A DNA stretch of 53,728 nucleotides, the filler included, from Jimgerdemannia flammicorona (lineage: Eukaryota): assembly GCA_003990765.1 (NCBI GenBank). It is 2 parts of 2 records of this genome, joined end to end, with 100 filler letters (N's around TTAATTAATTAA, not from the genome) between each part and the next. Parts side by side here need not be neighbours in the genome. Positions count along the whole stretch, not along the records: positions 1 to 26,819 come from RBNJ01000692.1; 1 more part is not named here. One strand, written 5' to 3'. The notes below the pieces were generated by a model, which worked only from the letters and a program-made list of their open reading frames with translations, was not told the DNA's origin and did not search any database. The first letter of the stretch is position 1; the number at the start of each line of letters is the position of its first letter. Made by a program: the position numbers and the translations under genes. This document shows, in pieces, positions 1-46,539 of the stretch.

Positions 1-30
<30 letters not shown>

Positions 31-35
<5 letters not shown>

Positions 36-1131
36 TAAATTACCCCAGAGACAAGAGTGAATAAACCTCAGTCCAAAAAGTTAAAGCAAATCAAAGAAGT
101 CTCTAAAGATTGGGCATTGGTCCCTTTTCCCCACTCTGGTCCACTTTCCGATACAAAGATTGATTGGTTCACTTGCCAGATAAGCCTGAAGTTTGCCACC
201 AAGTTCAAGGAAGAACTTTGCTGCTGTTTCCAAGTTAGAAAGCCTAAAAGAAAGCCACCTTGTTTAAGCCAGTTTCTGATGCAACTTTGCAGTGAATCTG
301 TTCGCACAAATGAAGCCAGTCTTTAATGCAACTTTGCCAAGAGACCCTTTCCCAGCCAAGCTGCCGATTCTGAAGAATATGCGCCATCGTATTCCCCGAA
401 GAGCCCGCCGATTCAGGAAGAATCTGCGCCATCCGAGTTATTTCCCAGAAGTCTGCCAATTCAGGAAGAATCCGCGTCATCTGCCATCTTCAAGTTATCT
501 GCATTCCCAGTTGAAGCCGCTGATTCAGGAAGAATCTGCATCATCCGAGTTATCCATACCATCTGAGTTATTCGTGGTTCCCAGTGAGCCCGAGTTAGTG
601 AGTTGTCAGTCACCAGTACAATTCCCAAACATCCTGCATAAGGAACCTGCCACGCTACACAGAGATCGCCACCACCCAAGAAGGAAACTGTTAAATTGAC
701 AGATCGTCATGCAGAAATCAGAGATCATCACTCAAGAAGGAAATCGCTCACACTATACACGAATTCTGCCAATTCCCAGTTGACCCGAATAAGGAACTCA
801 GTCGCACTACACAAGACCATCACCCCGAAATTGTATACTTTTGGAGATTGCCTTGCTACACGAAATTGTGGCATTCCCAGTTGACCCAAGAAGGAAACCC
901 GTTCACACACACACACAAATCATCGCTACACCCAGAGAACTGTCCGAATTAGGGAATCGACATACAAATCACTTGCAGATATCCTGCTTTGACTATTATA
1001 CCACTAAACACTAAGGACCTCAGGAATTATAGAACATTTTGTTGCTTTTTGACAAAGTAACTGGGGGCTCAAGCCAAACTACATCAACCCCCAACCTTGT
1101 AATTTGTCTCCATTGAGCCGGGCGCATTACA
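31..1131 (+). repeat. E1 5' LTR (partial, U3 missing)
   Basis: Colinear with ~8956-10055; ends ...CATTACA directly before the PBS. Confidence 0.95.
361..560 (+). repeat. Four imperfect tandem units (core CCGATTCAGGAAGAATCYGCG) in the E1 LTR; also at ~9285-9480
   Basis: Units visible at ~362, ~406, ~453 and ~518; each contains a GATTC...GAATC inverted pair. Confidence 0.85.
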
Positions 1132-1133
1132 TT

Positions 1134-1150
1134 TGGGGGCTCAACTGGGA
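1134..1150 (+). promoter_or_regulatory. Primer-binding site, tRNA-Pro type
   Basis: TGGGGGCTCAACTGGGA 2 nt after the LTR end; resembles the tRNA-Pro PBS TGGGGGCTCGTCCGGGA. Confidence 0.75.
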
Positions 1151-1199
1151 AGATTTCAAAATCGACATGACTTTTCAGCTCACAAGAACCCACAGTCAA

Positions 1200-3180
1200 A
1201 CTGGATACATTTGATCCAACACCAACCTCTGCTACTACAGGAGAACCAGTTATCACCAGTATCTGGACAGGAAGAGAAATAATTACATCAAGACTTGCCA
1301 ACTACCCAGCATCAGAAGGTTCCCAACCAGAAGGCAGTACAGCCCAAAATCTGCAACCAGATCAACCTGACAATACAGGCAGCCCTGCTAGAAATTTTGA
1401 AGAACTTGCACAAGAACTAGAGGATTTTATCACACAAACCTGAGACCTTCCAGCCAGACACCCCATACCAGCCCCACCAATTTCACCAATAGAACCCTTA
1501 CCACAACCTCTTGTAGAATTAGAAGTAGCTCCCACAAGGATACCTAGATTTATTCCACTTTGTCTAAGGTCCAGAACACCATCCTGAAGACACCCAAGTA
1601 TCCACATCTCGAGTAACAGTTCAGAAAGTGAATCAGAATCAGAATCCAAACCCAGACCAGAATCAGAAGAAAGTGACAATGAAATGGCCACCTCATTGTC
1701 AACCTTTGCAGAATACCCAGAGGAAGACCCCAGAGAATTTCTTGATGGAATTGAAGGAATCGCAGCCTTGAGAAATCTCTCAGATGAAAGAAAAATCGCT
1801 ATCTACAAGGATCAGCTCAGAGAACCAGCCAGAGGAATTTTTCATTGAATAGCAAATAATGCAGATTCAGAACTGGCAAGACAGATACAAGCAGCAATGT
1901 CTTACGAGCTAGAATATGAGACCATGGTCCACTGGCTCATTAAAAAGTATGCAGGAAATGAAACCCACCATAAGGCTCAAGAATCCATCATGGGGATGAA
2001 GATGAATCTTGGAGAATCACCCAGAGCCTTCTTCACAAGAATCCAGAAGAGAATGCATGCTGCTGGGTTCAATGTCACCAATCAAGATATCATCAGACCA
2101 ATGACCTTCATGAATGGAATTCCCTCAAACATTGCCCAGCATGTTCACATCCTAGACATCAGAAGGTCTGAAGAACAAGTAGATGCAGTCCAAGGATTCT
2201 TTGATGTCAGACAAGGAACTATCTGGAGCGATCATGACAGAAAAGAAGAGAAAGAAGACATCCTGGTCAAAGCCCTACAAGGACTCCTTCAAGGACAAGA
2301 AAGATCTGAAGAAAGAAGGCCAGTCAAGGAAGGAAAGAAGGACAGAAGTGAAATCCAAGAGCTCAGCTCCAAGTTGGACCAATTGGTTGGACAGATTGAT
2401 AAACTCACTATATGCGAAATTGGAACTATCAAGGTGATAGAGGATACCCACCACAGAGGAGTCAAGGTTATCCACCTAGGGATAACAGGAGTTATCAGCA
2501 AGAAGAAAGAAGATACCCCACCTGAGACAGAGCCCAAGTCCAATGCTTCTACTGTGGACAATTTGGACACTATGTCACTAAATGTGACAATAAAAGAAGT
2601 GACCAAAGGGACTCAGAACCATCAAACTGAAGGAATGACACTCAGTACAAGAAGACTGAAGCCCATCCTGTGGAAGATTTTGAGGAAGAGAGCAATAATA
2701 AAGACTACAGTGACCTAGACTTGTACTCTACCAAGATCACCACCTGAAAAACAGTCTACCCAGTAGAGAAGAGGAAGAGACCTATGGGAAGGCCATCCAG
2801 AAACATCAGCAGAAGAATTATTTAAGAGGAAGATGAAGAACATGAAGAAGAGCTGGAAGAAACACCTCCCTGAAGCCCCTCACCTTTTGTCCCTGAGATA
2901 AACAAGTTGCTACCAGAAGATGAAGAAATGGAACAAGAAGAACAGGAACCTGCTGCTCCAAAGCCAAAGAAGAAGTACACCCCAAAGACCATGCCTAGGG
3001 ACATTTACAATGAAGCTTGGCAGAAGATTCAGGAAGCCAAGATGGAAGTCCCCCTCCTGCAGTTCTTGCAACTAACACTAGCTGGAGTTCGAAACAAATT
3101 GCTGAGAACAACCAGGTCTAGCACTGGCCAAGTCCCAATCCCACAGCAAGAACCAGCTCCCATCCCTGTCCAAGCTGCTG
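1200..3180 (+). pseudogene. gag: E1 Gag with CCHC zinc knuckle (start uncertain)
   Basis: Capsid-like ORF 1897-2718 (GESPRAFFTRIQK); CFYCGQFGHYVTKC at 2544-2585 after a frameshift. Confidence 0.85.
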
Positions 3181-3189
3181 AAAGACATG

Positions 3190-3545
3190 TCTGGAGATAT
3201 TGGAGGACAAAAGGCGAAGATCCTTATAGACACAGGAGCAGCTGTCTGTGTTATTGCCAAATGATTCCTGGATACCCTCTAATGGCCCATTGATGGACCA
3301 TCCAATCTTAGCATCATAGTAGCAGATGGAGCCCAAACTCAACCCCTTGGAGAAGTACAAAATATCACCATTTCTCTTGGACACATTCAGTTCTCTATCT
3401 CCAAAGCTGTTGTCACAGAAGCTGTTACTTATGACATGATTCTTAGCACCAACTGGATGAAGGAAATGAATGCAGTCAATGATATTGGTCAATAAGTACT
3501 CAAGTTTGATTACCGAGGCAAGAAGTACAGAGTTAAGATGACCAG
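3190..3545 (+). pseudogene. pol: E1 aspartic protease
   Basis: KILIDTGAAVCVI (DTG at 3229-3237); YDMILSTNWM. Confidence 0.92.
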
Positions 3546-4839
3546 TTATGAGTAATCAAAGAAGAAGAAGGTCACTATTCAGGAAGAATATGCCAGCAGT
3601 GAGGAGTCTACTATAGAAGAAGAAGAAGAATCTGAAGATAGAAATGATCCCAGACTCAATTCCTGGATTACCCTGGTAGATGACAGACCAGAAAACAATG
3701 TATGGGTCAAGAATACTATCCCTATCACCATTGGAGCTATTGAAGGAGAAATCAAAGGATGCCCCACCTGCCTCAAGAGATACAAGTGTCCTGAGCATTC
3801 CTCCAAGATCATGGGAACAAAGAAATCACCTGGCACAGCCTGCTCAGAGTGCAGAAGGAAGAAGAAGAAATACAGACATGTTCCAGAAATACCTGCAACT
3901 GAAGCTACAGAAGTATAAGCAATTTGGTATCAAGAATCAACTGAGGAAGAAAAAACTTCTGACCAAGAAGTTTCTGAACAAGAAGCATCTGAAGAAGAAG
4001 AGGTCCCTGAACTCATCCCCTGGAATGATCCTCGCTGAACACTACCTGAAGACAATGACTCTTGGAATATGGAAGAAGGACCCAGTATGACCACCATTAT
4101 CTCCAAGAAAGAAACTCACCAAGAGAGGGCTTTTCGACTAGGAAGATATCCACATCAAATGATCTTCTCCTCTCTCCAAGACTACTGCTATCAGTGTCAT
4201 CTGTTGGACCAACAAGAAAGACAGAGACCCCAGAGACCAGAACCTCCAACTATACTTGCATAGTCAACCACCTTTCAAGAAGTTACCACAAGGTTACAAA
4301 GTCAATTCAGGGGGCAAGGCTTCTTCACCTGGACAGAAATATATCCCTTATCTACTCTTCCACCCACCTATGATCAAGATGGGTACCATTTCCCAAGACA
4401 ACAAGAGATCAATAACTGAGAACAACATTTCCAAGCAATGGGATATTTCAACCATAGAAGACACCCAGACTGCCAAGACTGCAGGCATCAGAAGATCCAT
4501 CTCAGTTATGATGTTACAGTCCACACCTTGAAGAGAGGAGATAACTGAAGCCAGATCCGAAAAAGCCAAACCAAAAAGCCAAGAAGAAGAACCCTCAAGA
4601 TCTATGATTTAGATGACTATATCCTGGCTCTCATCAGACATACAAACTGCCAAGGATGGGCAGAAGATACCACCAACTTCATGGATGCCCTTGACCCTAC
4701 AGGAAGAAGGGGAATCAACTATCTCTGAGACCCCTCTACTGGAGCCAGATGGCCACATCTCAACCTCAGAGCCTGGAGGCTCTCTGCTAGTGGAGCCTCA
4801 GCCCTAGGACAGCCCGAACTCAGCAAGGATATTGCCCAG

Positions 4840-5243
4840 TATGCCCTGCTGCACCCCAAGGCCAAACCCCTGACCAAAGCCCACCCAGAAGATGTAGGAT
4901 ATGATCTTCATAGTCTGGGGGATGAATTTATCAAGCCTGGAAAAACCTTCATGATCAGAACTGGATTAGCCATACAGCCACCCCAATGATCTTACATCCA
5001 ACTGACCTCAAGATCTGGACTTGCCAGACAAGGAATAACTGTGGAAGGAGGAACCATTGACCCAGGATATACAGGTGAAATCAAGGTTATCCTATACAAT
5101 AACAGTGCAGAATGGCACCGAATCATTAGAGGACAGAAAATCACCCAAGCAGTCTTCATGAAAGTCAAGACCCCACAGTTACAAGTAGTCTCTGAACTAA
5201 CTGAAGGAACAAGACAAGCCAAGGTATTTGGAAGTTCAGATAG
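4840..5243 (+). pseudogene. dut: E1 dUTPase domain (trimeric type)
   Basis: Motifs DVGYDL, SRSGLA, GTIDPGYTGEI, KITQ and RQAKVFGSS in order. Confidence 0.93.
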
Positions 5244-5633
5244 GAAAGAAGTACATCTCCTCCAAGTCAACCATCTCAAAAGGAATGCTCCCCAGCAAGT
5301 GTACCAACAACCAGTCAGACTGCACAAGAATCTGATCCTGGAGCCCGGAGAGCAAACAACATTCGAAATCTTTGCACCACCCGACCCCAGAAACCTTTTG
5401 TTTGAACCCAAGGAAGATATTCCCCATCTGGACATAGAAGGACACACATTCCCTAACAAGATGAACCCAGTACACTCCCAAGCAACCAACCAAAGTTGGG
5501 AAACCATCATCTTGCCAAAAGGAACCATCATCAGACATCTGGTACCTTTTCTCAACTGAACTCATAGGGAAGTTTATGAACTAAACCTATTGGGAAATGG
5601 CAAAAGGTCCCAGAAGAAAGGAAAGGCCCCTCT

Positions 5634-7060
5634 GTGACCCAGGAGACAGTGAAGCCTTCCACCAACATTGGAGAAGAATTGACACCTCAACAACAACAAC
5701 AACTAGCAGAACTTCTCAACAAATATCAAGATATCTTCACTACCAATTATGGCAACCTGCCATACAATCTATCATATTACTACAGCGTAAATATAGGAAA
5801 TGCAACACCCACCTGGCAGAAACTCTATAGAATACTCATCACTTAAAAATATTTGAAAAGGAGCACATCCAAGAACTCTTAGACAATGGAGTCATCCGAC
5901 CCTCTATCAGCCTTTGGGCTAGTCCTATACTTATTGTGCCAAAGAAAGGAGGATGGAGACTTTGTGTGGATTATAGGAAACTCAATTCAGTCACTGAAAA
6001 GGATGCCTATCCTCTGTCCAGAATCGATGACCTTTTAGATCAGTTATAAGATGTCAGATACTTCAGTAGTATGGACCTCTTTGCAGAATTCCATGAGATC
6101 CCCATGGACCCCAAAGATATTCAAAAGACAGCCTTCCTTGCTCTAGGAAAACTGTTTGAGTACCTCCAAATACCCTTTGGACTTTGCAATGCACCCCCCA
6201 CCTTCCAGAGGATGATGAATTCAGTCTATGCCCCCTTGATCCATCACTGCTTAATTGTATACATGGATGATTCCAACATCTATTCAGCAAATTTTGAAGA
6301 ATATCTGTACCACCTAGAGGAATTCTTCAAGCTCACCTGCAAAAACCACTTGAGACTGAATGCAAAGAAATTCTACTTTGGGAAACAGAAACTTGAATTC
6401 CTTGGATTCATAGTCTCAAAAGAAGGAACCCATACAGACCCAAAGAAAACTGAGAAGATCAACAATTGGCCAGTACCCAAGACCCCAAAGGAAACACTAT
6501 CATTCCTGATGCTAGTATCCTACTACAGAAGGTTTATCAAGGACTTTGCCCAAATCGCTGCCCTAATCCAAATCCTTCTCAAGAAAGGAGTACCATTCAA
6601 ATAGACAGAATCACAAGAAAAAGCCTTCATAGAACTCAAGAACTGCATGACTACAGCACCAATCCTTGTGTGCCCCAATCTACAGAAGCCATTTATCTTG
6701 TACACAGATACTTCTAAAGATGGCCTTGGAGCAGTTCTAGCCCAAGAAGGACTCAATCAATAGCACCATGTGATAGCTTATGCAAGCAGAGCTACCAATC
6801 AGCAGCAGATGAACTATGGTAGCACCAAACTAGAATGCCTTGCAGTTATATAGGCAGCCACCCTGTTCAAGCATTACCTTATCAGAAAAAGGTTCACTCT
6901 GATCACAGACCATGCAGCTCTCAAATGGCTATTCAACTGCAAGAAATCCACTGGAATCCTAGCCCACTGGATTCTTATCCTTCAGGATTACAAAATCACC
7001 ATCATCCACAAAGCAGGGAAAGCTCACAATAATGTTGATGTACTTTCCTGCCAACTCCAA
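5634..7060 (+). pseudogene. pol: E1 reverse transcriptase + RNase H
   Basis: [29 protein letters not shown] (6260-6271), LYTDTSKDGLGAVL, TDHAALKWL. Confidence 0.96.
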
Positions 7061-7089
7061 TTAATCAGAAGAAAGGTGTCCTGAGGAAC

Positions 7090-8110
7090 TACACTCTAAA
7101 GGAAGCTCCTTAGACCATCAAGGCACAAGAAGATCTTATCTGAAAAGAACATCAGAAAGCCTACCAGGGACAGGCAAATGTAGATGAAAAGCTGAGAACA
7201 ATACACCAACATTGGCCCCACCTCAGAACCCAAGTCCAAGACATCATCCAGAAATGTGACACTTGCCAGAAGTACCAAGAAAAGAAGAACTATCAAGCCC
7301 CTTTGCAACCAATTTCCCCACCCACTCACATCTTTCAGAGATGGGGAGTAGACATAATTGGACCTCTACCAGTTATACTGAGAAGAAACAAATACATTCT
7401 TATATTCATAGAATATCTGTCCAAGTGCCCTGAGGCTTTCTCAATGGAGATCACAGATGCCTTAACTATTGTAGGCCTTCTTCATAGACTCACACTCAGA
7501 TATGGACCCCCAGAAGAACTCATCTCTGACTGAGGTACAGAATTTATCAATAACATAATCACAAGTTATGCTCGAATTCACAAGATCCACCTCAAACAGA
7601 CCACATCATACCATCTCCAAACCAATGGCATGACAGAAAGAATGAACCAGACTATTAAGAATGGACTTGCCTAAGTCAATTCCACCAATTGGGACCTCTG
7701 CTTACCTGAGATCCTATGGGAAATCCAAAACACCCCTGTAGCTTTGACCAAACAAAAACCATTCGAAATGATGTTTGCCAAGAAAACCAGAACTGCTGAT
7801 CATGAAAATCTTGGAGATCTCCTCAAAAAGGCAGAACAGTTATGTAATCAAGCCCAAGGTCAGATTATCAAAGCCCAAGAAAGACAAGAGAAGTATTATG
7901 ACCAAAAGCAGAAGGATCAGGAGATCAAGATTAGAGATCAAGTACTAGTTTGGAGAAGTATGATTGAAATGAATTTCGCTGCCAAACTGGAACCCAAATA
8001 GGAAGGGCCTTATCTTGTATACAATGTCAAAGGAACTAGCATCTATTTAAGAAGCATGGATGGATGAACCCTAAGAATACCTGTACACATCAATCACCTC
8101 AAACTATATC
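7090..8110 (+). pseudogene. pol: E1 integrase
   Basis: CDTCQ, WGVDIIGPLP, EELISD(R)GTEF, QTNGMTERMN, EGPY. Confidence 0.95.
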
Positions 8111-8638
8111 TCCCTTCTACACCTCGAGTCAAAGGATTGATCAGCACCTCCAGACATTGGTCCTCAGCTCCTTCCAAGCCCTACCAGTCCCTCTACCCCA
8201 ATTCGGCCAAGCTAATGGAAGCCCCCTTCAGAGGATCCAAGTTCATCAAGAAAATCTCACCCTGGCCAGATGACTACTACAAGTCCACCAACTGCAGGCC
8301 TATTACACAATAGGTGAACAATTGCAGAACCTTCCAGCCCCAGAGCAGACCTACATCAGGAACACCACAGGTCTGACCAGAAGAGACACTACTGCTACAG
8401 ACAGACTATACACCATTTACAAATGAATGTCACAGCCCTGACATAGACACAATTCTCCCTGAATGATATCCAAGAAATGAACCCTATTACCTATTTAAGC
8501 ATCATTAATTCTGTCAAAATCCTATTCCCTGAAGAAGAAGAAGAGCCCATAGAATGGAGTGACCCTAGTATAGACAATGAAGATGATGGAACAGGTATAG
8601 ATACAGAAGCAGCCTATGCCTATTGGGATGATGACTGA
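8106..8638 (+). pseudogene. E1 3' accessory ORF of unknown function, acidic tail
   Basis: Reads LQAYYTIGEQL...TATDRLYTIYK...LNDIQEMNPITYLSII...EEEEEPIEW; similar ORFs at the same position in E2, E3 and E4. Confidence 0.7.
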
Positions 8639-8677
8639 AGGATTGTCTGAGACAGACTACCCTTCAGTGGGGGCTAA

Positions 8678-10055
8678 TGTGACAAATCAAAACATACTAC
8701 CTGAATTATACCTTAGCCAGATGATGTGAACACACAGCATAGTAACCAGTAACCATTGCTGCAGAAAACTATATAAATAGCCAGACATACCAGAAAGAGA
8801 CTGTTTACCTATACAGACTCTGTACACCATACAGACTCTGTACACCATACAGACTCTGTACACTGTACAGGTCCTATACACCATACAGACTCTGTACACC
8901 AGCTATAAGTAGCAGATCTATAGTTAGCCACATAGTAACCAGATAGCAACCAACTTGTATAAATTACCCCAGAGACAAGAGTGAATAAACCTCAGTCCAA
9001 AAAGTTGAAGCAAACCAAAGAAGCCTCTAAAGATTGAGCATTGGTCCCCTTTCCCCACTCCGGTCCACTTTCCGATACAAAGATTGATTGGTTAGCTTGC
9101 CAGATAAGCCTGAAGTTTGCCGCCAAGTTCAAGGAAGAACTTCGCCACCATTTCCAAGTTAGAAAGCCTAAAAGAAAGCCACCTTGTTCAAGCCAGTTTC
9201 TGATGCAACTTCGCAGTGAATCCGTTCGTGCAAATGAAGCCAGTCTTTAATGCAACTTTGCCAAGAGACCCTTTCCCAGCCAAGCCGCCGATTCAGAAGA
9301 ATCCACGCCATCGTATTCCCAGAAGAGCCCGCCGATTCAGGAAGAATCTGCGCCATCCGAGTTATTTCCCAGAAGTCCGCCGATTCAGGAAGAATCCACC
9401 TCATCTGCCATCTTCAAGTTATCCGCATTCCCAGTTGAAGCCGCCGATTCAGGAAGAATCCGCGTCATCCGAGTTATCCATGCCATCTGAGTTATTCGTT
9501 GTTCCCAGTGAGCCCGAGTTATCGAGTTGTCAGTCACCAGTACAATTCCCAAATGTCCTGCATAAGGAACCTGCCATGCTATACAGAGATCGCCACCACC
9601 CAAGAAGAAAACCGTTAAATTGACAGATTGTCACGCAGAAATCAGAGATCGTCACTCAAGAAGGAAATCGCTCGCGCTATACACGAATTCTGCCAATTCC
9701 CAGTTGACCTGAATAAGGAACTCAGTCGCGCTACACAAGACCGTCACCCAGAAATTGCATACTTTTGAAGATTGCCTCGCTAAACGAAATTGTGGCATTC
9801 CCAGTCGACCCAAGAAGGAAACCCACTCACACACACACACAAATCGTTGCTACACCTAGAGAACCATCCCAATTAGGGAATCGACATACAAATCGCTCGC
9901 ACATATCCAGCTTTGACTATTATACCACTAAACACTAAGGACCTCAGGAATCATAGAACATTTTGTTGCTTTTTGACAAAGTAACTGGGGGCTCAAGCCA
10001 AACTACATCAACCCTCAACCTTGTAATTTGCCTCCATTGAGCCGGGTACGTTACA
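8678..10055 (+). repeat. E1 3' LTR (1378 bp, TG...CA)
   Basis: Starts TGTGAC after the PPT-like AGTGGGGG; ends GTTACA. Confidence 0.93.
8811..8900 (+). repeat. 18-bp tandem repeat x5 (ATACAGACTCTGTACACC) in E1 U3
   Basis: Directly visible. Confidence 0.95.
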
Positions 10056-11262: not shown

Positions 11263-11711
11263 TATGATGATAGAACTAAATTTAGAAGAAGAAAATAGGG
11301 AATAGATACTTAATTGCTACTAGTTCTAAATTAGTATAACCTTATAGTTAGCAGTCTCCAATTTTTGATAATTTCTAAATATTTTAAAATATTTGAAATT
11401 GAAGACCTGATATAGTATAGCATTTTGACAATGTCAAAATATTTTGATATTTTCAAAATAACTCATAACTTAGCCATCTACCTTAAGGCTAACAAACTTA
11501 TATAAATAATTCAATATCTTAGAGGAAATAAACCTCAGATTGAAATAGTTCAAAGTAAAGAGAAAGCAAAGAAACTAGTAAGTCTGCAGGCAGATATACT
11601 TCAAACTCACCCACCCCTATATTCCAAGGACTCTGTGGAGTCAAAGAAGATCAAGTTTTCAAGATACAGAAATCTAACATATGTCCAAGGTTAAGCATCC
11701 ACTACATTACA
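11263..11711 (+). repeat. E2 5' LTR
   Basis: Aligns with 17467-17867; ends CATTACA. Confidence 0.9.
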
Positions 11712-13859
11712 ACTTAGTACCTATTGGCTGGTGATTCAAGACAAATCTCTCACTTTTAAGCTGAACAATGAACAACTGCCATCACCTAAACAACCATACA
11801 AGTTGAACCAAGATATCCAGACAAGATAAATATAAGACCACCAGTATTCTATAATTATACTTCAAATGAGTCAATCATTATCTTCATTGATGATTTCAAG
11901 TAATATACCACTGTAAGGGGCCTGACAGCAAGGCAGCAAGCAACCCTCATACTCTTCAGTCTCTGAGGATCAGCAAGAGTAGTATTCACAGCTGTAATCT
12001 ATGTAGAAAATGATATCTGAGCTATATACTATATAGATGAGATCAAGCAAGTACTGAAAGATCGGCTCAACACAATATGCTAAGAAATGAGTGAGAATCT
12101 AAACATATTCTACACCAGAATCTGATATTAGATAATTCTTATAGATTATGGTGCCACTATCAGGGATCAAGTAGCTGAAGCAACCTTTATGAAAGAAATC
12201 CACCCAGAGATAGCTCTGGCCATCTGCTCATCACTAATAGTTCTGGATCTAATACAGAAGATCACTTATGCTCAGCAATACTAGATAGCCAGATACCTAC
12301 AAGACCATACAATGGAGAGAGTCACTGGAGTCAGAATTGAAGCATCCAAGACAATCAGTATGATACCTACCATAGTGATCAATTGGAATACACCTCAACT
12401 AAGAGCTACAGAATAATAGAGAAATAGTGACCCCATGGAGGAACTTGCAAAGAAGTTCACCAAAATGATAGCCTATCTAGGAGATGTGGTAAAGGAAAAT
12501 AAAGTAAGAGACTACTGCCCAGTTCAGAAATTTACTGCTATCTTAGACAAGAAGAGAGATATCTGCTATACTTGTAGAGAAGAGGACCACTATTTATATG
12601 AATGTATAAGTAAAACTAAGCATAAGGTACAGCTAAGCAATGCTACTCAAAATAAGAAACAGCCAACATTATTACCTTCAAGGAGATTGGGAAATCAGAT
12701 AAAGAGGAATGGGAAACCTACTCTGCTGAGACTATCAGAAAAGATGTCCATAAACCACCCTATAAGAGACCACTAGGGAGACTTAAGAAGAACTCTGTGA
12801 AAAAGCAGATAGAGACTGCTACAGAAAGTCAAGATAAAGAAATAGATCTAGATATAGAGCTAGAACAGGCTATTTAAGATATTATCTGAGAAATCACTCT
12901 AGCCAGTAAAGGAGAAAAGGAGCAGAAGCTTTGCAAAATAAAAACCTTCAAGTATGATATCTTCAAGGATCTCAGTCAACAAAAGGTCAATGCAACCTTT
13001 GGCCAGCTGGCAGAAATTCCCACATTCAGACAGCAAATGAGGTTTGAACTTACTGAAACAACCAAGAAGCAAGGATGGAAGATAACTGAGACCAATAAAG
13101 TTCAAAAGGACTCAGGAGAAGAAAGCAAAGACAACTATGAGACCTATGCCTATACAATCTGTCAAATTGAGGACAGAGTCTTTGAGACTATCATTGATAT
13201 AGAAGTAGGAGAATGCCTCCTCAGTAAGAAAGCAGCAGACTGCCTAGGTTGGGAAGTTGAAGAAATAACCAAAATAGTATTCATCACAGCAGATGGTATA
13301 AGAGCCACACCTCTAGGAAAGATCTGAGATATTCCAATCAAGTTTAGAAGAGCAACCATTACAGTGAATATAATCATGACCAATGCAACCAACTATGACA
13401 TTCTTATTGGTAATCAATGGCTTCACAAGGCTAAGACAGTAATTGATCTGAATGCTCAGAAGATGCAGATTATCTACTATAGACAGAAGATATAAATTCC
13501 CATCAATATCAACAAAGGAGTTCTGTCTGAGATGGAGGAAGAAGATAGTGAACAAGAGGAAGCCTACATGGTGACAACTCAGAAAAAGAAGAAGAAAATC
13601 AGATGGATGAGTGAAGAAGACAGATGTAAGAAGATTATAGAAGAATATACACCACAAGGAGTTTGCCCCCATGGGATCCAAATGTACTATATAGAGCATA
13701 TCAATGAGTGTTACCAGTATACTGGCAAAATCAATGAGATCTACTACCAAAGAAAAGAGAAGGTACTCAAGAAATAGGTAAGAGAAGAAAAGAAAATAAA
13801 AGAAGAAGAGGATGACAAACCACCAGCTCTCCTTAGAGACAGTAATAATGAAGAGGAAA

Positions 13860-14280
13860 TTAAGATCAAGATTTGGAAGATTCATCCTGATACAGTCCTA
13901 CCAGAATACAAATCAGAAAATGCAGCTAAAATAGATATCACCACAGTAAAGAAACTGTACTCAAATCTCAGACACCCACTCTACTTGCAACTGGCCTGAA
14001 GATGACAATCCCAAAGAATTATATTGGGATCCTCAAGACAAGAAACAGCCTGACCAAGAGTGAAATTACAATTGAAGGAGAAGTTATCAATTCAGATTAT
14101 ACTGGAGAATTGCCACTCATTGCTAGGAACCATAATCCTACAACACCATTTCCAGTCAAGAAGAAGGGCCAGTTAGTACAGATGCTGATCTTTTCAATCC
14201 TACAACTAAAGATCATAGAATTCAAGAAGCTGGAGGAAACAGAGAGAGAAAAGAAAGGATTTAGATCTATAGGAAGAGGA
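13860..14280 (+). pseudogene. dut: E2 dUTPase domain
   Basis: LATGLKMTIP, KTRNSL, GEVINSDYTGEL, TEREKKGFRSIG (mutated motifs 2, 3 and 5). Confidence 0.88.
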
Positions 14281-14379
14281 GTATTCATCAGTATCAAGAT
14301 CACTGAGCTGGAGGACAAGAAGGAGGAAACTACAAACAAATACAGCTATACTATTAAAAATGAATTCCCACTCAAGACA

Positions 14380-16975
14380 GAGCTCAAGAAATACTCCATG
14401 AATTTGAGGATATCCTCACCATAGACTTCAAATATATCAAAGAAAAGACTCTATACTACTATTATGATATAGATACTGGAGATGCTGAACCAATTTACCA
14501 GAAGGCAAGATCTGTCCTGCCAGCCTACCAAGAGTGGCTCAGAGAAGAAATCAAGCAGATAGAAGAAGCTGGTATCATTAAGGAGGCCAGCACCCCCTGG
14601 TCTTCACTAGTTGTACTAGTTCCAAAGAAAGGAAGCAAGTCTGGAGAATTCACCCCAAGACTCTGCATTGATTACAGAAAGCTCAACATAGTCACCAAGA
14701 AAGATTGCCAACCACTGCCCCTCATCAGCGACATCCTTATAACTCTGAGAGACAAAGCACAGTATTATAGCATCTTGGATCTATACTCAGGATTCCATCA
14801 AATCAGACTCACAGAAACAGTGAGTGAGAAATCAGCCTTCATCACTCCAGATAGAACCTATGTCTACCTGTGAATGCTATTTGGAATAGGCAATGTACCA
14901 GTAAGTTTCCAGCAAATGATGAATAAAATCTTCTACTATGATATGGGAAGATGGATAATGGTTTATGTGGATAATATGATTATTTACAGTCAGATATCAG
15001 AGGAACATCTGTGGTACATCCAGTAGATAATGGAAATGCTGAGAAAGTATGGCCTATATATCAAGCCCAAGAAATGCAAATTTGTGGAAATCAAGATCTC
15101 CTATCTTGGCCACATCATTAACTAAGATGGAATACACACTGACCCTCTCAAGATATAAGCAGTAGCAGCATACCCAAGGCCTACTACTATTACTGAAGCC
15201 CAAGCCTTCATGGGACTTGCCTCATACTACTGTTGATTTATCAGAGAATTCTCTAACATTACAGGCTCAATCTACAAACTCAACAAGAAGGATATCAAGT
15301 TCCAATAGACTGGTAGACAACAAAAAGTATTTGATGAACTTAAGGTCAGACTGACCCAGACACCCATCCTCAGAAGACCCAATTGGACTCAAGAGTTCAT
15401 CCTGTAGACAGATGTAAGTGCACAGGAACTAGGAGCAGTCCTAGCTTAAAAAAAGGACAAAGTGGAGTATATCATTATATATCTCAGCCAAGTAACCTGA
15501 TGAGCTGAAAAAGAATATGAATTCTACAAGTTGGAATGACTCACAGTTATCTGAGCTGTAGAAACATTCCACTACTATCTTGCCAGAAGACACTTCACAA
15601 TCCAGACAGATCTCTCAGCCCTCACCTAGCTACTGACTACTGGAATCCAAAGGAATTTATACCAGATAGATCATTAAGCTGTAAATCAAAGATATAACTA
15701 TTGTGCACTGCTCAGGAAGAACCAATACCAATATAGATGCCCTCTTATAGATACTCTGAAGGATCTCCAACCAGCAAATCAATTATAAATAAGGAGCTCT
15801 ACTATAGAATTATTATCTATCTGAGCCAGCAAAAGATGTCCCAACATCTGGAAGAATAGAAACAAATGATTATCAACAGAACATGGAAATAATTTGAAAC
15901 CAATGGAGAAACATTGAAGAAAGGAAAGCTATTAGTTATATCAGAACATAAGAAGGAACAAGTAATGAAATCAGTATATGAACTTGGCCATCTAGGAGGA
16001 ATGAACATATACAATAAAGCAAGAAGAACAATATAGTGGCCAGAAATGGAGGAAGATATCAGATAATTTGTCAAGACCTGTAACAAATGCCAGAAATAGA
16101 AATAAGATCAATGAAATCAACCTCCAGGATCAGTATATATAGAATCAGTACTATTTACCCATATTGTAATAGATATAATTGGCCCTCTACCCTTGACCTT
16201 AACTGGCAACTAATACATCATTGTCATTATAGACCTTTTCATGAAATGAATAGAGGCAGAACCTCTTAAGAAAGCTAATGTACAGTCAATTGCTGATTTC
16301 TTTCACAAAGAAATTATTTGCTGGTTGAAGACCCCAACATAAGTAACTATAGAGAGAGAAATAGAATTCATGAACAAGTTCTTTGATGTTCTCTACAAGA
16401 AGTATAAGATTCAGTACATTTAGACTACAGCATGCCATTCTCAAGGAAATAGACAAACAGAAAGGACTAATAAGTTTCTCAAGAATATTATTACCAAGAT
16501 CTACAATAACTACAAAAACTAGAATCACTATCTGCTAATAGCATTATCTGCTCTCCAGAATATTTGATCACAATACACTCATTTCACCTCTTGGGAAATG
16601 CTGTTCAGAGAAGAAAGTTTTTAAGAAACCCTATTATCTAATAAAGATACTATATGAAAATGTGTATATAGAGAAATATAAAGACTATACCAAATCAGGA
16701 AGAAGGCTGAGGATTATATAACCAAGGTGCAGACACTATAATAGAATAATGCAAAAAAGATTCACAAGCCCCTGGAGATTATAAAGATAGGAGACAAGAT
16801 TCTGGTATATCAGAATATGGTAGAAGCTTTATGGTCATGAAAACTAGAGCCTAAGTGGGAAGGACCTTACCTTGTGCAAGATATAAAAGAAACCACCTTT
16901 TGGCTATAAAAACTCTCAGGCACAATCATCCCCACTACTATCCACTGAAACTAACTCAAAAAATACTATAGCTAA
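14380..16975 (+). pseudogene. pol: E2 RT, RNase H and integrase
   Basis: RLCIDYRKLN, ILDLYSGFHQI, VYVDN (YxDD), IDIIGPLP, LEPKWEGPY. Confidence 0.92.
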
Positions 16976-17429
16976 TAACTGAAGTATAGCAACAGCACTC
17001 AAGATCACTAGTGCTGCTCAAAGAGCCATTGAGAGACAATGGTATACTACAGAACCCCTGACTATAGAAGGATCTTATGATAGCATCCAAAGTATCATAT
17101 AGATCCATCTTTCTCAAATTTTGTACTTCAAGGCCTACCACTATCAGATAGAGTTCCAAGAGTACTTCAAACTTGGACAGATACTCAACAAGAGCCCAGA
17201 AATGACTAAGAATGATTGGATCACAGAGTGTCAGCTCTCCTATTCACAAATCACCATTGCCAAAAGAATTTATAAGTTATTCTAAGATAATGAACCAGTA
17301 CTAGTCCACCTATGAGGAATAACTCCTATCAATTTCAAGCTAGTAAGGTAACACTATTGGGAGATAGTGATAAAACAGATTGTACAGTACAAAACCATAC
17401 AGACTGTTGAGGCCTGGAAATTTGAATAG
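16968..17429 (+). pseudogene. E2 3' accessory ORF of unknown function
   Basis: 154-codon single frame, stops explicable by C-to-T: FQEYFKLGQIL...ITIAKRIYKLF(Q)DNEPVLVHL(R)GITPINFKLV. Confidence 0.75.
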
Positions 17430-17466
17430 ATGTTTCAGAGATAAGACTATCTATTCAGGAGGAAGT

Positions 17467-17867
17467 TGTAATAGTAGAATTAAATTTAGAAGAGAAACAG
17501 GAAATAGACACTTGATTGCTACTAGTTCCAAATTAGCATAGTCTTATAGTTAGCAGTTCCCAATTTTGATAATTTAGTATTTTGATAATATTAAAATGTT
17601 TTGACACTTTTTAAATAACTCATAACTTAGCCACCCACCTCATAGTTAGTAAACTTATATAAGTAACCCAGTATCTTAGAGTGAATAAACCTCAGATTGA
17701 AATAGTTTAAATCAAAAAGAAACAAAGGAACTAGTAAGTCTACAGGTAGATATACTTTGAACTCACCCCTTCCTGTATTCTAAGGACTCTGCAGAGTCAA
17801 AGAAGAACAAGTTTTCAAGATACAGAAATCTGATCTACTTCCAAGGTTAAGTATCTGCTATGTTATA
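17467..17867 (+). repeat. E2 3' LTR
   Basis: Starts TGTAAT after the purine tract AGGAGGAAG. Confidence 0.9.
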
Positions 17868-20800: not shown

Positions 20801-21599
20801 TTATTATAAGTCTCATCAATCTTTTATACTAATATCAAGAGGTATAATGAGTTCAAAGGAGAAGAAAGAACCTTGAGAAATATTTTTGATTCAAGGAATA
20901 TGTGTTTGGGTGAAAAGAAAAGAAAAATATGTTAGAAAAACTAGTCCTTTATATATATATATTGAGAGGGAGAGTGGTAGAAAAAAGCAAGCATGCAAAT
21001 ATATATAAAATTAAATGTAAATATATATTATGAAATGAAGAGTAGTGAATAGTATATGGAGTGCTGAATTAGATAGTATTAAATGAAGAAGACCAAAAAT
21101 GGAAATATACACCCAATATACAGCCTAAAACAGAGATAAGATATACAGCATCAAAGACATAAGTACTCAAGACATTCTTGTATCCATTGATCTATGGGCT
21201 CAAATGAGCCCCCTTATTCAATCTTTTGTAATAATGTCAAGAGGAATAATAAGTTCAAAGGGGAAGAAAGAACTCTAGGAAAGATTTTTGATTCAAGGAA
21301 TATATATTTGAGGGAAAAGAAATGAAATATATAGTAGAAAAACTGGCCCAAATAAATATTGTATAACCTGATGTTGGGGAAGTAAGAATGAGAAAGGACT
21401 GATACCTAAAGGAAAGTAGAGAAGTGTAGTCAGAGAAGATAAGATGGTACCATGAGCAATGTATTACCAGAATGATGTAGAGAGTGTACAGTACTCTGCA
21501 CTAATAGCTGGTATCACGGGCCCATATATAGTGAGAGATACTTTACTGATTAACTGATATTACAGATATGTGGTTAGAAATGTCAGTGACCAAGGAAAA

Positions 21600-25500: not shown

Positions 25501-26197
25501 TGCTTCTTCTAGCAGATTTTCGAGATATAAAATCAGAGTGCTAATATCAGGATTATTATTATTATTGGGGTCATCTTGCAAAAGGTAGAGCATACATTTG
25601 ATAAAAGGGATATTGTAGTGGAATGGGCAAGATGTGGAACTGAGGTCATATTGCTCTTTAGATATATTAGAGAGATTGTGTCAGTATAGAGGGCAGGAGT
25701 TGACAGTGAGCACCATTGAGGTGGAGTGTATAGTAAATATGATATAATTAGAAAAAAGTAAGTATACAAATATACATAAAAGTGAATATGAATATATATT
25801 ATAGTGTAAAGAGTAGCATATAGTATATGGAGTACTGAATTAGATAGTATTAAATAAAGAAGACCAAAAAAGGAAATGTACACCCAATATGTAGCCCAAA
25901 ACAGAGACAAGATATATAGTGCTAAAGATACAAGTATCCAAGATATTCCTGCATTCATTGATCTGTGGGCTTGAATGAGCCCCCTTATTGAATGAGAAAA
26001 TACACTAAAGAAACAGTGGTAATAATGAGGAAAATACATTCTATGGATCCTGTCAATATGGCAGTTGTACTAAACGAGGTTAAAAGTATAGACAACAATA
26101 AGGTCAATAAATCCAAACCCAAGCTCAACAATGAGACAACCAATCTAGCCAATTAACTAAGTATAATAGTTACTATGAATACTGCAACAAGTATGAA

Positions 26198-26819: not shown

Positions 26820-26919
26820 NNNNNNNNNNNNNNNNNNNNNNNNNNNNNNNNNNNNNNNNNNNNTTAATTAATTAANNNNNNNNNNNNNNNNNNNNNNNNN
26901 NNNNNNNNNNNNNNNNNNN
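26820..26919. other. Artificial contig-joining linker (N44-TTAATTAATTAA-N44)
   Basis: Exactly 100 nt and symmetric; the central 12-mer gives stops in all six frames. Confidence 0.97.
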
Positions 26920-30269: not shown

Positions 30270-32870
30270 CTCTAACCAAGGACCAGCAACAACAGATAAA
30301 GGAGTTGATAGAGGAGTACGAAGATATATTTACCACTACATATGATAACTTCCCACCATATCAATATGGAGAATACCCTATACATACTGGAGATGCAAGA
30401 CCAATCCAACAACGACCCTACCGAATACCACATCATTTGATTGAATTCGAACAATAACACATAGATGAAATGCTATGAAATGGAGTCATCAGACCATCAT
30501 CAAGCCTCTGGGCTTCACCAGCAATTATAGTACCAAAGAAAGGAGGATGGAGATTAGTCATGGATTTCAGAAAACTCAACAAAGTCACCACAGAAGATGC
30601 CTATCCACTGCCAAGAATTGATGACCTCATCAATGCCCTCGGAAAAGCCAAATACATGATCACTACTGACCAGTTCTAAGGATTCCAAGTAATACCCATT
30701 GCCAAAGAAGATATCTGTAAGACAGCCTTCATCACCAGATGAGGACAGTATGAATACCTATGAATGCCCTTTGGACTCTGCAATGCACTTGCCTCATTCC
30801 AACGAATGATAAACTATGTCTACCGGGACCTCATTGGAAGAAATGTACTAGTATACATAGATGATGTAATCATCTACTCTGAGACATTCAAGCAGCATTT
30901 GCAAGACCTCCATGAAGTATTCAATACCATTCGAAATTCAGGACTCAGACTCAATGCCAAGAAGTGCTTCAGAAAACATCAAGTTGAATATCTGGAATAT
31001 GTTGTCTCAGCTCAAGGAACACATGCCGACCCCCACAAGGTGGAGAAAGTCAAGAACTACCCAACCCCGACCTCAGCAAAGGAGACCCTATCTTTCCTTA
31101 TGCTGGCATCCTACTATCGATGATTCATCTCAAAGTTTTCAGATAAGGCAGCACCTCTCCGAGATATCTCCAAGAAGGACCAACCATTTTACTGGAAAGA
31201 AGAACAACAAAAGTCATTCGACCTACTCAAGAAGGCCCTTACCGAAGCCCCTGTCCTGGTGTGACCAGACTTTGGCAAACTGTTCATCCTGACAACTGAT
31301 GCCTCAGCCTTAGGACTTGGATCAATTCTGTCTCAGCAAGATGACCAGAAGAGGGAGCATGTTATCGAATATGCTAGTAAGGCCACAAATGAAACACAAG
31401 CAAACTATGGAGCCACTAAGTTGGAATACCTAGCAGTAGTTTGGGCTGTGGACCACTTCCAACACTATCTCTTGGGAAAGAGATTCACTCTCATCACTGA
31501 CTATCAAGCTCTACAATGGTTGTTCAACAAGCCAGAGCCCTCAGGAATCTTCGCTAGATAGATCATGTCTCTGCAAGAATATCAGTTCACTATTGTCTAC
31601 AAGAAAGGTGCTAAGAATTCCAATGTTGATACCCTGTCAAGAATCCCGCGAAACCAACAAGTAGGAAAGGAGCCTCCACAAGAGAAGGCTGCTTCCTGCT
31701 TACCCAAATGAACCAAGAATTGCACCTCACCCTCATCTGGAGTCTGTACCATAGAAGCTTCAAGAAAGGAATCCAATCAGCCCACAAGTTATTTATCCAA
31801 AGGAATTTCAAGAAATTCCCAAGTTCTAAGAGAAGAAGAAATATTGAAGATCCTGACAACAAATCATGACCAAAATGCACACCGAGGAATTGGCGCCACA
31901 ATTGTAAGAATCAAGAAGTGATACTGATGGCCCAAGATGAGAAAACAAATTTCAATGCACATTCAACAATGTGATATCTGCCAAAGATACTGACAAAAGC
32001 CTACTGACAGAGCACCATTAATACCGATCACAGCACCAGCTGGAGCCTTTCAAAGACTAGGAATAGACATTATTAGACCCCTACCAGTAACCAGCCGAGG
32101 AAGATACTACATCCTCACTATCGAAGACCATCTGACAAAATGGCCTAAAGCCTTTGCCATTGAGACTGCTGATGCCCAGACAATTATTGGGATCCTGTAT
32201 GATGAAATTTTTAGCTGCCATGGTGTGCCCAAGGAAATCATTACAGACTAAGGCCGAGAATTTGTCAACCAAGCCATGAAGACCTTTGTGAGCAACTTCA
32301 AGATCAAGCTATGACCAACAACATCCTACCACCCACAGGCAAATGGACTCACTGAACAAATGAACCAGACCATCAAGTGAGGTCTCAGTAGAACCAGAGA
32401 TCAACTAAACTGGGATATCTATCTACTGGCAATTCTGTTCAGCATCCGTATCTCTAAGGCAACTGCTACCCAACAGACCCCCTTCTATTTGGTGTATGGC
32501 CAAGAAGCATATGATCCTATTGAACCAGTCCAGCTAGATCTGTCAAAACAAGTCACAGAAGAGATCACTTGGTTATACGACATACACTAGCAAGCATGAG
32601 GATTTATCACCAAGGTACAAGAACAACAAAAGAGGTACTATGACCACAAAGCTGACCTTGAACCCCTGCTTATTGGACAAAAGATTCTGGTGTACCATAC
32701 CATCATAGAAGGAAATTGGAGTGCCAAGCTTGAACCAAAATGGGAAGGCCCCTATCTCATACACCAAGTATTCTCAAACCACACTTATCAACTCAAGACC
32801 TTAGATGGAGTTATACTCAAGACCAAGATACACTGCAACCACATAAGACTCTACTATTCAAGAGAAGCAA
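30270..32870 (+). pseudogene. pol: E3 RT, RNase H and integrase
   Basis: MPFGLCNALASFQRM, YIDD, LTTDASALGLG, YHPQANGLTE, LEPKWEGPY. Confidence 0.95.
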
Positions 32871-33412
32871 AACATATTTGAACAATCCTATTCACTCTGT
32901 CTGTATCATCTCTATTGGAGATACAATGGACATTTCACTCAGAACTCAAGAAAGTCAACAATGTTGGAACCAGACTCAAGCCCATCCACACGACAGACAT
33001 TGTTACTAAGAAATTGCCTCAGATTATAAGAAATACTATTTCTGATGGGTTCGAACCCCCAGCCGCAACTATGGGAGCCCTCGCCCTAGACAAGGATGGC
33101 CAGTCCTCACAAATACACCGACATTCTGCTCATCCCTGGAGTTAAGACCACTCAACTCTGTGTAACCTTCACCACCGAGGATGGCTCTAATTTTGCAAGG
33201 GGCAGATGTGATGTACGTAATTGACAATGGAGTACCAGTGACTGCTAAGATCAGATGACATAATGGCATGACAATCGAATAGACAGTCTGACCCATTAGG
33301 TGATCACCCCAAAAGGAGCAATGATAATCTGAGCCAAAAGGAAGACTACATTATTTAAAGAACCATACTCCGCCTCAGGAATCAGCACCAAAGAACAAGT
33401 ACCCACCACACA

Positions 33413-34339
33413 ATACCTCCTATCCGCCACCCCAACTAGATCTCCCACTGCTCTTCCCTCTTGCCTGGCATAAAGACTCTAATCCTTGAAGCTGTCAAGA
33501 AGGCTATTTGATGCCCAGATACCTCTAAACATCTGAACTTCTACACTGAGAACCTTGGACACTTCATCAATTACCAGTACATAATGACCCAATAGCTCAA
33601 AGATACCACTGAATGAATGATCCTCTGGTATGATTACGAAATTGAACACCACCTTTGTAATGAAACCCAAGAAGGCGACCAGGAAGACCTCATTGCTGAA
33701 ATGTTAACCACCAGCCGGCTAATCAAGAGAGCTCTCTATGTCCACCAAATCTTCTGCCATATTCTCTGGGCTATAGCACACTTACAAGGAGTAACTGCTG
33801 GAAGTCTTGCCCACCTCTCAACCGAAGATGTAGACTGGATAGAATCAGAAGTAGCCGACTCTATTGGTAGTAACTGGGTCACTGTAGGAAGCCAACAAAC
33901 CAAGCCCACTCAACCAGGCTTTCACACCACTCCACTCCGAGACAACCATCAAAGTCACCTAATGAGTCTCATGGAAATCTTCGAAGGGCCACCCATTATC
34001 ATTACAACACCTGTTGGAGCAACCCCAACTACTCACCACCCTGTCAGCTACAATTCACACCTCATCATTTAGGAACCAAATCAAGAAGTCCCAGAAGTCC
34101 CTACCAATACGGAAACTGAAGGATCTGAGGAAGAAGAAGAGGAGGAACAAAGAATCTACCAATCCTCTGTCCACCTTCAAGCAGTCCAAGGGTTGGAGAA
34201 TGTCATTGAAGATGATTGGCCACAATTCTACCCCCTCACCTCCTGGCCAGTGCTCCCACCCTTTGAAGAATGGGATGAAGAAGTTATAACCCAGCAAGAT
34301 GATTGGTTCACTGGCAAAGGGTACTTTACCATTCAGTAA
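33413..34339 (+). pseudogene. E3 3' accessory ORF of unknown function, acidic tail
   Basis: Single frame through C-to-T stops; RALYVHQIFCHILWAIAHLQGVTAGSLAHL; closest to the E4 ORF. Confidence 0.78.
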
Positions 34340-34587: not shown

Positions 34588-34599
34588 GCACAAACAATT

Positions 34600-45583: not shown

Positions 45584-45584
45584 A

Positions 45585-46425: not shown

Positions 46426-46539
46426 CTTAGGCCACAAACTTCAGGCTGAGTTCTCAGGTTTTTTTCCCCTTTTTATTATTTTTGAAAGATATTAAATATT
46501 CCACAAGAACAACCAACTCATCTGCAAACCCTCAGGACC

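Follow-up and report, generated by a model that had tools for sequence, protein, structure and literature searches.

A decayed third gene in dUTPase-bearing Ty3/Gypsy elements of Jimgerdemannia flammicorona

Four decayed copies and their intact relatives

The DNA analysed here, a stretch of 53,728 nucleotides (nt) joined end to end from two records of the Jimgerdemannia flammicorona assembly GCA_003990765.1 (the window), is a nest of decayed transposons. It holds three Ty3/Gypsy elements, E1, E2 and E3, and the 3' part of a fourth, E4, and in each an extra open reading frame (ORF), here called ORF3, follows pol and precedes the promoter part of the 3' long terminal repeat (LTR). The original prediction, made from the DNA letters only, proposed that these four frames encode a conserved, helical accessory protein of this clade that is not an envelope (env) protein. 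All four are remnants of a genuine third gene, one carried by a dUTPase-bearing Ty3/Gypsy clade:

8127 to 8638, plus strand: E1 ORF3 pseudogene, in frame A (8127-8426) and frame B (8420-8638), with an acidic tail
16968 to 17429, plus strand: E2 ORF3 pseudogene, 153 codons, without an acidic tail
33413 to 34339, plus strand: E3 ORF3 pseudogene, 308 codons, with an acidic, W-rich tail
52479 to 53350, minus strand: E4 ORF3 pseudogene, with an acidic tail ending in ..VLNILL

Profiles built from intact relatives return to all four copies, and the coordinates originally proposed prove correct to a few bases. The E1 copy is matched by a profile of five intact relatives at 8127-8426 (1.2e-58) and 8420-8635 (3.5e-27); its start codon is gone, and it has one frameshift, two internal stops and a further stop where the two frames meet. 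The E2 copy, matched at 16968-17354 (5.7e-65), is 72% identical to the intact 153-amino acid (aa) protein P0010 over 99% of the length, but its ATG has become ATA and five stops are present. Damage to the E3 copy is of the same kind (ATG to ATA at 33413, and five stops), and it is matched by the E4-type profile at 33416-34018 (3.9e-29). The E4 copy is 74% identical to the intact 247-aa protein P0001 and is matched at 53329-52748 (1.9e-83) and, in another frame, at 52796-52482 (2.9e-27); it keeps the ATG at 53350 and is interrupted by two stops and by one frameshift near 52796-52727. Wherever this can be checked, the stops fall at R, Q or W codons of the relatives (5/5 in E2, 3/3 in E1 and 2/2 in E4), as CpG-type decay would produce. 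Taken by copy, the relatives have R, Q, H or K at the E2 stops and R or Q at those of E1.

Intact relatives were found with each type of window copy. The E4 tail, with its stops read as X, was used as the query of a full HMMER search of 1.84 billion representatives (E <= 0.001), which gave five matches, four of them small proteins of 247, 214, 342 and 138 aa (3.3e-79 to 9.9e-13). The fifth, P0005, is a tandem-repeat protein of 1583 aa (E 8.8e-9) with seven stretches that fall on query residues 22-73, and was dropped as a repeat-inflated false match. A search with the E3/E4-type profile added four proteins (7 of 2891 candidates accepted), the E2 tail yielded seven accepted proteins out of ten candidates, with P0010 as the best, and the E1 tail yielded five out of 21, two of which are full-length (171 and 172 aa). 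The relatives thus number 20, namely eight E3/E4-like (138-342 aa), seven E2-like (88-153 aa) and five E1-like (100-172 aa). In addition, a metagenome scan returned one locus, L001 (1535 nt), with an intact ORF3 of 331 codons, the sole intact relative outside the window that comes with its DNA, and scans of viral contigs with the E3/E4 and E2 family profiles found no relative.

All 20 relatives come from JGI or ENA assemblies, with no NCBI or UniRef source among them. Where a name is given, it is 'hypothetical protein', and no relative has a Pfam domain. Therefore, the family seems to be absent both from annotated proteomes and from domain libraries. Further searches agree with the expectation that no characterised retroelement domain would be matched: ten ORF3 relatives gave no Pfam family at E <= 1 other than four stray sub-threshold matches (E 0.062-0.2), and no retroviral family, Tas/Bel included, at that threshold, while sequence profile searches of the PDB gave no matches. 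The protein is also not env-like. The highest Kyte-Doolittle mean over 19 residues lies between 0.19 and 1.03 in seven relatives, which is to say that no transmembrane segment was found, and the N termini of these relatives are polar or basic, unlike the signal peptide and transmembrane segment of env. Overall, ORF3 is very probably a real accessory gene, and the claim of a conserved, non-env accessory protein of this clade is borne out by the intact relatives and by their hydropathy.

A separate reading frame in three subfamilies

The position of ORF3 relative to the end of pol differs between elements, and the following features are needed to describe it:

7123 to 8108, plus strand: E1 integrase, immediately 5' of ORF3, spanning the zinc-binding domain through the end of the C-terminal module (..HINHLKLY; Pfam Integrase_H2C2 and rve)
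16973 to 16978, plus strand: E2 pol stops, TAA TAA (three-frame read-out)
31832 to 32875, plus strand: E3 integrase (Pfam), followed by a spacer of about 540 nt before ORF3

If ORF3 were a mere C-terminal extension of Pol or integrase, gene callers would have trimmed it at its first methionine. Such an extension would fit E3, where ORF3 and integrase are in the same frame, and E1, where the pol frame stays open for 68 codons beyond the last integrase motif and overlaps ORF3, whose start lies about 25 nt after that motif. However, the E2 start codon (16968-16970, which now reads ATA) lies in another frame and begins 5 nt ahead of the pol stops, and in L001 there are in-frame stops 17 and 25 codons 5' of the conserved methionine. 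The N termini are, moreover, conserved from the methionine onward in all three subfamilies: proteins P0002, P0003 and P0006 and the L001 frame start with MP[AP]xR, six of the seven E2-type proteins start with MANN, and four of the five E1-type proteins start with M[NT]QR (the fifth has the motif internally, after an upstream extension). The distance from integrase to ORF3 varies, from an overlap with the pol stop in E2 to about 540 nt in E3. Finally, a long fused form was not found, in that none of the four real matches of the HMMER search, which was run without a length limit, exceeds 342 aa. An extension of Pol is therefore very improbable, and ORF3 is read in a frame of its own, from a conserved start, rather than as an integrase tail.

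The region upstream of ORF3 in L001 is homologous to E3 33078-33170 (tblastx, 0.002), and since it matches the E3 spacer, the gene order is conserved. A conserved, coding-like stretch was observed between the integrase C-terminal module and ORF3, at E3 32880-33200 and L001 1-150; it could be a C-terminal extension of Pol or another small ORF. With regard to expression, termination-reinitiation would be the simplest route for the E2 type, because its ORF3 start begins 5 nt before the pol stop, and a subgenomic or spliced RNA would be needed for the E3/E4 type. No usable splice acceptor was seen 5' of the E2 ORF3 on a brief look, which was not a dedicated search.

Homology among the four copies is hard to see in the raw sequences. 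Comparison of the window tails by tblastx was significant for one pair out of six (E3-E4, 9.7e-5), and for the other five the best E-values were 0.079-0.41. Profiles of the intact relatives (A3 for the E3/E4 family, A4 for the E2 family and A5 for the E1 family) were therefore compared by hhalign, with 60 column shuffles per pair and a reversed profile as controls. A4 and A3 align over 103 columns with a score of 41.5 (P 1.2e-5, Prob. 81%); the shuffles score 11.5 +/- 2.2 (maximum 17.2), none of the 60 reaches the observed score, and the reversed profile scores 13.8. A5 and A4 align over 53 columns with a score of 29.1 (P 6.4e-4, Prob. 28%), again with 0/60 shuffles reaching the score (12.9 +/- 2.0, maximum 17.7) and a reversed score of 9.5, and the aligned columns coincide with the two motifs of the first reading. 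The direct comparison of A5 with A3 is not significant (P 0.033, Prob. 1.5%, 22 columns, score 21.2; shuffles 16.2 +/- 21.8, maximum 133.8, two of 60 reaching the score; reversed 15.2). In six-frame searches of the window, the best non-self match of each profile is the tail of another element: A3 finds E2 (0.33), A4 finds E3 (0.0073, at 33647-33811) and E4 (0.063), and A5 finds E2 (0.3).

These frames could also be unrelated spacer ORFs that share two short motifs by chance, which would agree with the five non-significant tblastx pairs and with the outcome for A5 and A3. Against this, the two significant profile scores are 8 and 14 standard deviations above their column shuffles, with low reversed controls, and a joint MAFFT alignment of the subfamilies is colinear from the start codon on. 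The core motifs, E-[YF]-x-[IL]-G-x-x-L (motif 1) and A-[KD]-[KR]-[ILV]-[HY]-x-[ILV]-[FY] (motif 2), have the same spacing of 23-24 residues, and ORF3 has the same position in the element. Chance resemblance is therefore extremely improbable. Because the A4-A3 and A5-A4 links hold, E1, E2 and E3/E4 belong to a single, transitively homologous family; judged from these profile alignments, the three fast-diverging subfamilies are homologous across an N-terminal core of about 100-130 residues. The motif first noticed by eye is thus shared beyond chance, though it takes profiles of intact relatives to see it, and the expected profile-profile similarity was obtained for E2 with E3/E4 and for E1 with E2, but not for E1 with E3/E4 directly. 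ORF3 has diverged far faster than pol, in that the reverse transcriptases (RTs) of E1 and E3 are 53% identical while their ORF3s cannot be aligned directly.

As a separate observation, residues 1-23 of E1-type proteins (..RIDQRLQTL.LSSFQSLP..) resemble residues ~169-190 of E3/E4-type proteins (..NPDQFLQGLISVFQGP..). This is the alignment with P 0.033 that does not rise above shuffles, and the resemblance between the E1-type N terminus and the E3/E4-type C-terminal domain may be chance or a shuffled module.

The host elements and the sequence around ORF3

Pfam scans of read-through frames identify E1 (~1-10055), E2 (11271-17855) and E3 (26920-~35305) as Ty3/Gypsy elements with the domain order protease, dUTPase, RT, RNase H and integrase. 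E-values for E1, E2 and E3 are 8.7e-23, 3.5e-13 and 2.3e-27 for dUTPase and 2.3e-26, 1.9e-25 and 2.8e-29 for RVT_1, and rve, Integrase_H2C2 and the aspartyl protease were also matched in all three. E4 is present as its 3' part alone, on the minus strand at the window end, and has no Pfam match. The RT of E2 is 40-41% identical to those of E1 and E3, and the integrases of E1 and E3 are 40% identical. Gypsy elements with a dUTPase are described from basidiomycetes in a passage of PMC2864245, which is compatible with a fungal host.

The LTRs and the other features next to ORF3 are:

8958 to 10055, plus strand: E1 3' LTR, the part pairing with the 5' copy at 34-1131 (93.2% over 1098 nt, self-blastn)
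17466/17475 to 17855, plus strand: E2 3' LTR, which pairs with the 5' LTR at 11271-11699 (75% identical, self-blastn)
8952 to 9009 (E1), 17627 to 17710 (E2) and 34645 to 34714 (E3), plus strand: LTR block bearing TATA and AATAAA, 3' of ORF3 in all three (blastn)
8811 to 8901, plus strand: E1 tandem repeat, 18 nt x 5.1, after the ORF3 stop and ahead of the promoter block (Tandem Repeats Finder, TRF)
34331 to 34588, plus strand: E3 tandem repeat, 126 nt x 2.0, from the ORF3 stop (TRF and repeat search)
52396 to 52461, minus strand: E4 tandem repeat, 34 nt x 1.9, just past the ORF3 stop (TRF)
17456 to 17475, plus strand: E2 polypurine tract and first bases of the 3' LTR, a 20-mer
53582 to 53601, minus strand: the same 20-mer in E4, ~240 nt 5' of the ORF3 start codon

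The 5' LTR copy of E1 is truncated at the promoter block by the poly-A run that opens the window, and E3 is without a 5' LTR because it begins at the joint between separately assembled pieces (26820-26919, N...TTAATTAATTAA...N). The window as a whole starts with a poly-A run and finishes with a poly-T run. Between the two E1 LTRs there are 75 differences, 63 of which are transitions, and 41 of those transitions are at CpG; the observed/expected ratio of CpG in the elements is 0.01-0.23. Decay directed at CpG in this way suggests that C-to-T mutation in the host is either linked to methylation or targeted at repeats.

The LTR block is similar between E2 and E3 (82.6% over 69 nt, 8.9e-15), between E1 and E3 (82.6% over 46 nt, 1.8e-8) and between E1 and E2 (74.6% over 59 nt, 4.1e-5). 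Perfect, GC-containing palindromes are present in U3-like stretches of three elements. An 18-bp palindrome (52442-52459, arms of 9) is duplicated within the 34-nt repeat of E4, a 19-bp palindrome lies in the 5' LTR of E2 (11422-11440, arms of 9), and a third is found in E1 (8856-8870, arms of 7).

The 20-mer raises the question of where the LTR of E4 begins. Its pattern has two matches in the window against 0.04 expected, although it was derived from these same two sites, and blastn aligns 24 nt at the two sites (92%, E 3.8e-5). The end of E4 near 52045 also resembles the E2 LTR end. Together, the upstream 20-mer and the LTR-like end would place ORF3 inside U3 in the E4 type. In L001, a related motif occurs on both sides of ORF3 (170-197 and 1481-1508, 24/28 identical). 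The rest of the E2 LTR does not match the E4 flanks above shuffles (7, 21 and 13 of 200 reach the local-alignment score), the polypurine-like motif is weak in E1 and E3 (5/100 shuffles have at least two matches), and in E1 and E2 ORF3 lies outside the LTR. It is possible, then, that the E4 type has either an LTR-embedded ORF3 or a second polypurine tract.

Elsewhere in the window, a remnant of a hAT transposase C-terminal dimerisation domain lies on the minus strand within 43000-50600 (Pfam PF05699, 7.1e-5). Direct repeats at 20978-21222 and 25749-25993, 83% identical, flank a minus-strand element of ~5 kb whose read-through frame has an RNase H-like end (..GIADTLS..) and no Pfam match at E <= 0.001. 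This element is perhaps a retroelement outside the Gypsy group.

Predicted structure, possible roles and known systems

A structure was predicted by AlphaFold2 from 18 sequences of the three subfamilies, with P0010 first (mean predicted local distance difference test (pLDDT) 77.7, predicted template modelling score 0.59). The P0010 model has seven helices, one of them long (residues 33-75), with mean pLDDT of 83-94 over residues 41-120, and the ORF3 core is thus modelled as all-alpha. P0010 was also modelled as a homodimer, with ipSAE values of 0.47, 0.48 and 0.45 against 0.00 for the best control, contact agreement between runs of at least 85% and partner pLDDT of at least 64. The mark for a dimer was reached by 21 of 30 solved same-chain pairs and 0 of 23 solved single chains from microbes, and by 17 of 29 same-chain pairs and 0 of 30 single chains from eukaryotes. 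The modelled interface comprises residues 40-76 and 84-94, and would correspond to an antiparallel homodimer along the long helix that bears motif 1.

Outside the core, the tails of E1-type and E3/E4-type proteins are rich in W, F and L and strongly acidic, the net charge being -19 in the final 52 residues of P0021 and -14 in the final 61 of P0006. The three acidic tails originally noted are present in E1, E3 and E4. At the other end, the E4-type N terminus is rich in Arg (net +8 over the first 60 residues of P0006), which is not common to the other subfamilies. What stands of the original interpretation is a conserved, helical, non-env accessory protein, for which the profiles, the model and the hydropathy all argue; its further proposal of a DNA- or chromatin-binding transactivator or anti-silencing factor is among the roles weighed here.

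On the reading preferred here, which is doubtful, ORF3 would be a dimeric nucleic-acid-binding regulatory cofactor that acts on the U3 of its own element with the acidic tail as effector. The helical C-terminal half, with motif 2, would contact DNA or RNA, and the acidic, W/F/L-rich tail of two subfamilies would recruit host machinery. Its likely targets would be the repeats in tandem and the palindromes of that U3, as for a retroviral transactivator. The U3 repeats and palindromes, the modelled dimer, the acidic tails and the sub-noise helix-turn-helix similarities described below are weak leads only for such a transactivator. The whole statement, that ORF3 is a third gene encoding an all-alpha dimer with a role as regulatory cofactor, is put forward as tentative. 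A bolder version, in which these are 'complex' retrotransposons of a fungus-like host whose dimeric, sequence-specific regulator, comparable to a foamy-virus transactivator, binds palindromic or tandem repeats of its own U3 and activates through the acidic tail, and in which one subfamily has the gene embedded in the LTR and hence a copy in every solo LTR, is quite unlikely.

Several points weigh against the cofactor reading and the evidence on which it draws. All four window copies are pseudogenes and none is alive, and the relatives are ORF predictions on short contigs (600-4848 nt), so that their being intact is partly a matter of ascertainment. The link between the E1 and E3/E4 types is indirect, as described above. 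The AlphaFold model of the 271-aa type (A3) is poor (pLDDT 46.6) and was not used for the fold search. The P0010 model bears out a helical protein, but not a confident structural match: the best Foldseek E-values are 0.94 against the PDB and 0.25 against BFVD, and the best Z in a wide VIA-align search is 4.8, below the 8-13 that the tool sets as its bar for helical models. Helix-turn-helix proteins do recur among the VIA-align results, over model residues ~57-152, but with Z of 3.5-4.8 they are within noise; they are SopB (Z 4.8, root-mean-square deviation 5.2, 85 aligned), VirB (4.2), ParB (4.2 for that of P1), KorB (3.7), sigma region 4, DeoR and CENP-B. The ESM Atlas gave only unnamed clusters or scattered named ones (0.80-0.95, fewer than 170 shared features) and no usable lead. 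The dimer was modelled from a single sequence, and eukaryotic passes of the dimer tool may reflect memory; of seven without an older solved relative, only one passed. Since E2-type proteins lack an acidic tail, whatever the tail does cannot be common to the whole family. Lastly, the AT-rich window has 31 palindromes with arms of at least 7, and those in U3 are therefore suggestive at most.

Other roles would draw on the same properties. As an adaptor for host factors, the helical dimer would bind to the integrase or particle of its own element while the tail tethers a host protein, and it could in this way steer integration and replace a chromodomain. Consistent with this, Pfam gave no Chromo match at E <= 0.01 in any forward frame of E1-E3 or in the E4 tail, the tails are strongly acidic, short hydrophobic tail motifs (..DLISFED.., ..VLNFLL, ..EEW.., ..YWDDD) recur within the E3/E4 subfamily, and the elements are nested in other repeats. 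However, the E2 subfamily has no tail to tether with, and the tail sequence is not conserved between subfamilies, the conserved part being the helical core; both the adaptor and its use in steering integration are unlikely. Plant and insect viruses encode suppressor proteins against host defence, and ORF3 might similarly counter genome defence by RNA silencing, DNA methylation or repeat-targeted mutation. The heavy CpG-directed decay seen in the E1 LTR pair would fit such a role, as would the divergence of ORF3, at a pace relative to pol that an arms race could explain. Fast divergence is nevertheless also typical of regulators and adaptors, and no similarity to known suppressors was found in the Pfam and PDB sequence searches, which leaves counter-defence improbable. 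A structural or chaperone component of the particle, either a second capsid-associated protein or a nucleic-acid chaperone, would also be small, helical and, as in the model, self-associating, and the Arg-rich N terminus of the E4 type would suit it. Yet that basic N terminus is confined to one subfamily, no gag region of the window is matched by any of the ORF3 profiles, and the host elements already encode a gag with a zinc knuckle, so a particle component is distinctly improbable.

LTR retrotransposons are usually regarded as gag-pol machines. Conserved accessory genes, a hallmark of complex retroviruses, are seldom met in retrotransposons and for the most part have no explanation there. 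In the present case a single gene family has been kept in at least three Gypsy families whose RTs are only 40-53% identical. Its divergence, much quicker than that of pol, suggests that it serves the element in its interaction with the host, and an undescribed third gene makes the gene set of this group more virus-like than the usual gag-pol design. In practice, an ORF3 profile would improve transposon annotation and give a handle on the regulation or targeting of these elements.

Third ORFs that are env-like are known in Ty3/Gypsy elements, from the insect errantiviruses (gypsy, ZAM) to plant Athila. Like these, ORF3 is an extra frame that a Ty3/Gypsy element carries after pol and before its 3' LTR, but it is without a signal peptide or transmembrane segment, encodes 150-340 aa that are modelled as all-alpha, and has no sequence match to them. 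Genes located in or overlapping the U3 of the 3' LTR are also known, namely MMTV (mouse mammary tumour virus) sag and HIV (human immunodeficiency virus) nef. The polypurine-tract and LTR-start motif 5' of the E4 ORF3 would give it a similar place inside the LTR, whereas the E1 and E2 copies lie outside the LTR and L001 has the motif on both sides of ORF3.

In the literature, the Athila env-like ORF is mentioned in a passage of PMC2864245, and lineage-specific extra ORFs (eORFs) of enigmatic function are described in LTR retrotransposons of the plant Tat/Ogre type of Ty3/Gypsy, where the text excerpted from PMC4408406 lists PMD, coiled-coil or transposase-28 domains; in contrast, ORF3 has no known domain. 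Captured ORFs are reported from bdelloid elements in an excerpt of PMC5408684. The nearest published counterpart is in fungal Gypsy elements, some of them with a dUTPase, for which a figure legend of 2010 (PMC2864245) marks an 'add. ORF' of unknown function. This may be the same family as ORF3, going by the legend alone. No description of the ORF3 family was found in full-text literature searches, the nearest being this undiscussed 'add. ORF', known here from its legend. Extra ORFs in LTR retrotransposons are therefore a known kind, and the ORF3 family itself appears to be new.

Complex retroviruses offer a further comparison, as they carry regulatory genes before or in the 3' LTR, such as that for the foamy-virus transactivator Tas/Bel1. 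ORF3 resembles Tas/Bel1 in its position at the 3' end, its small size, its build of an N-terminal part that is folded and a C-terminal part that is acidic, and the repeats carried by the adjacent U3. It differs in that it has no sequence similarity to any Pfam family and in that the E2 subfamily is without the acidic part; judged by composition, an acidic region of the Tas/Bel type would fit the E1-type and E3/E4-type proteins but not the E2 type. In its layout, ORF3 is most like the retroviral regulators, without a tie in sequence.

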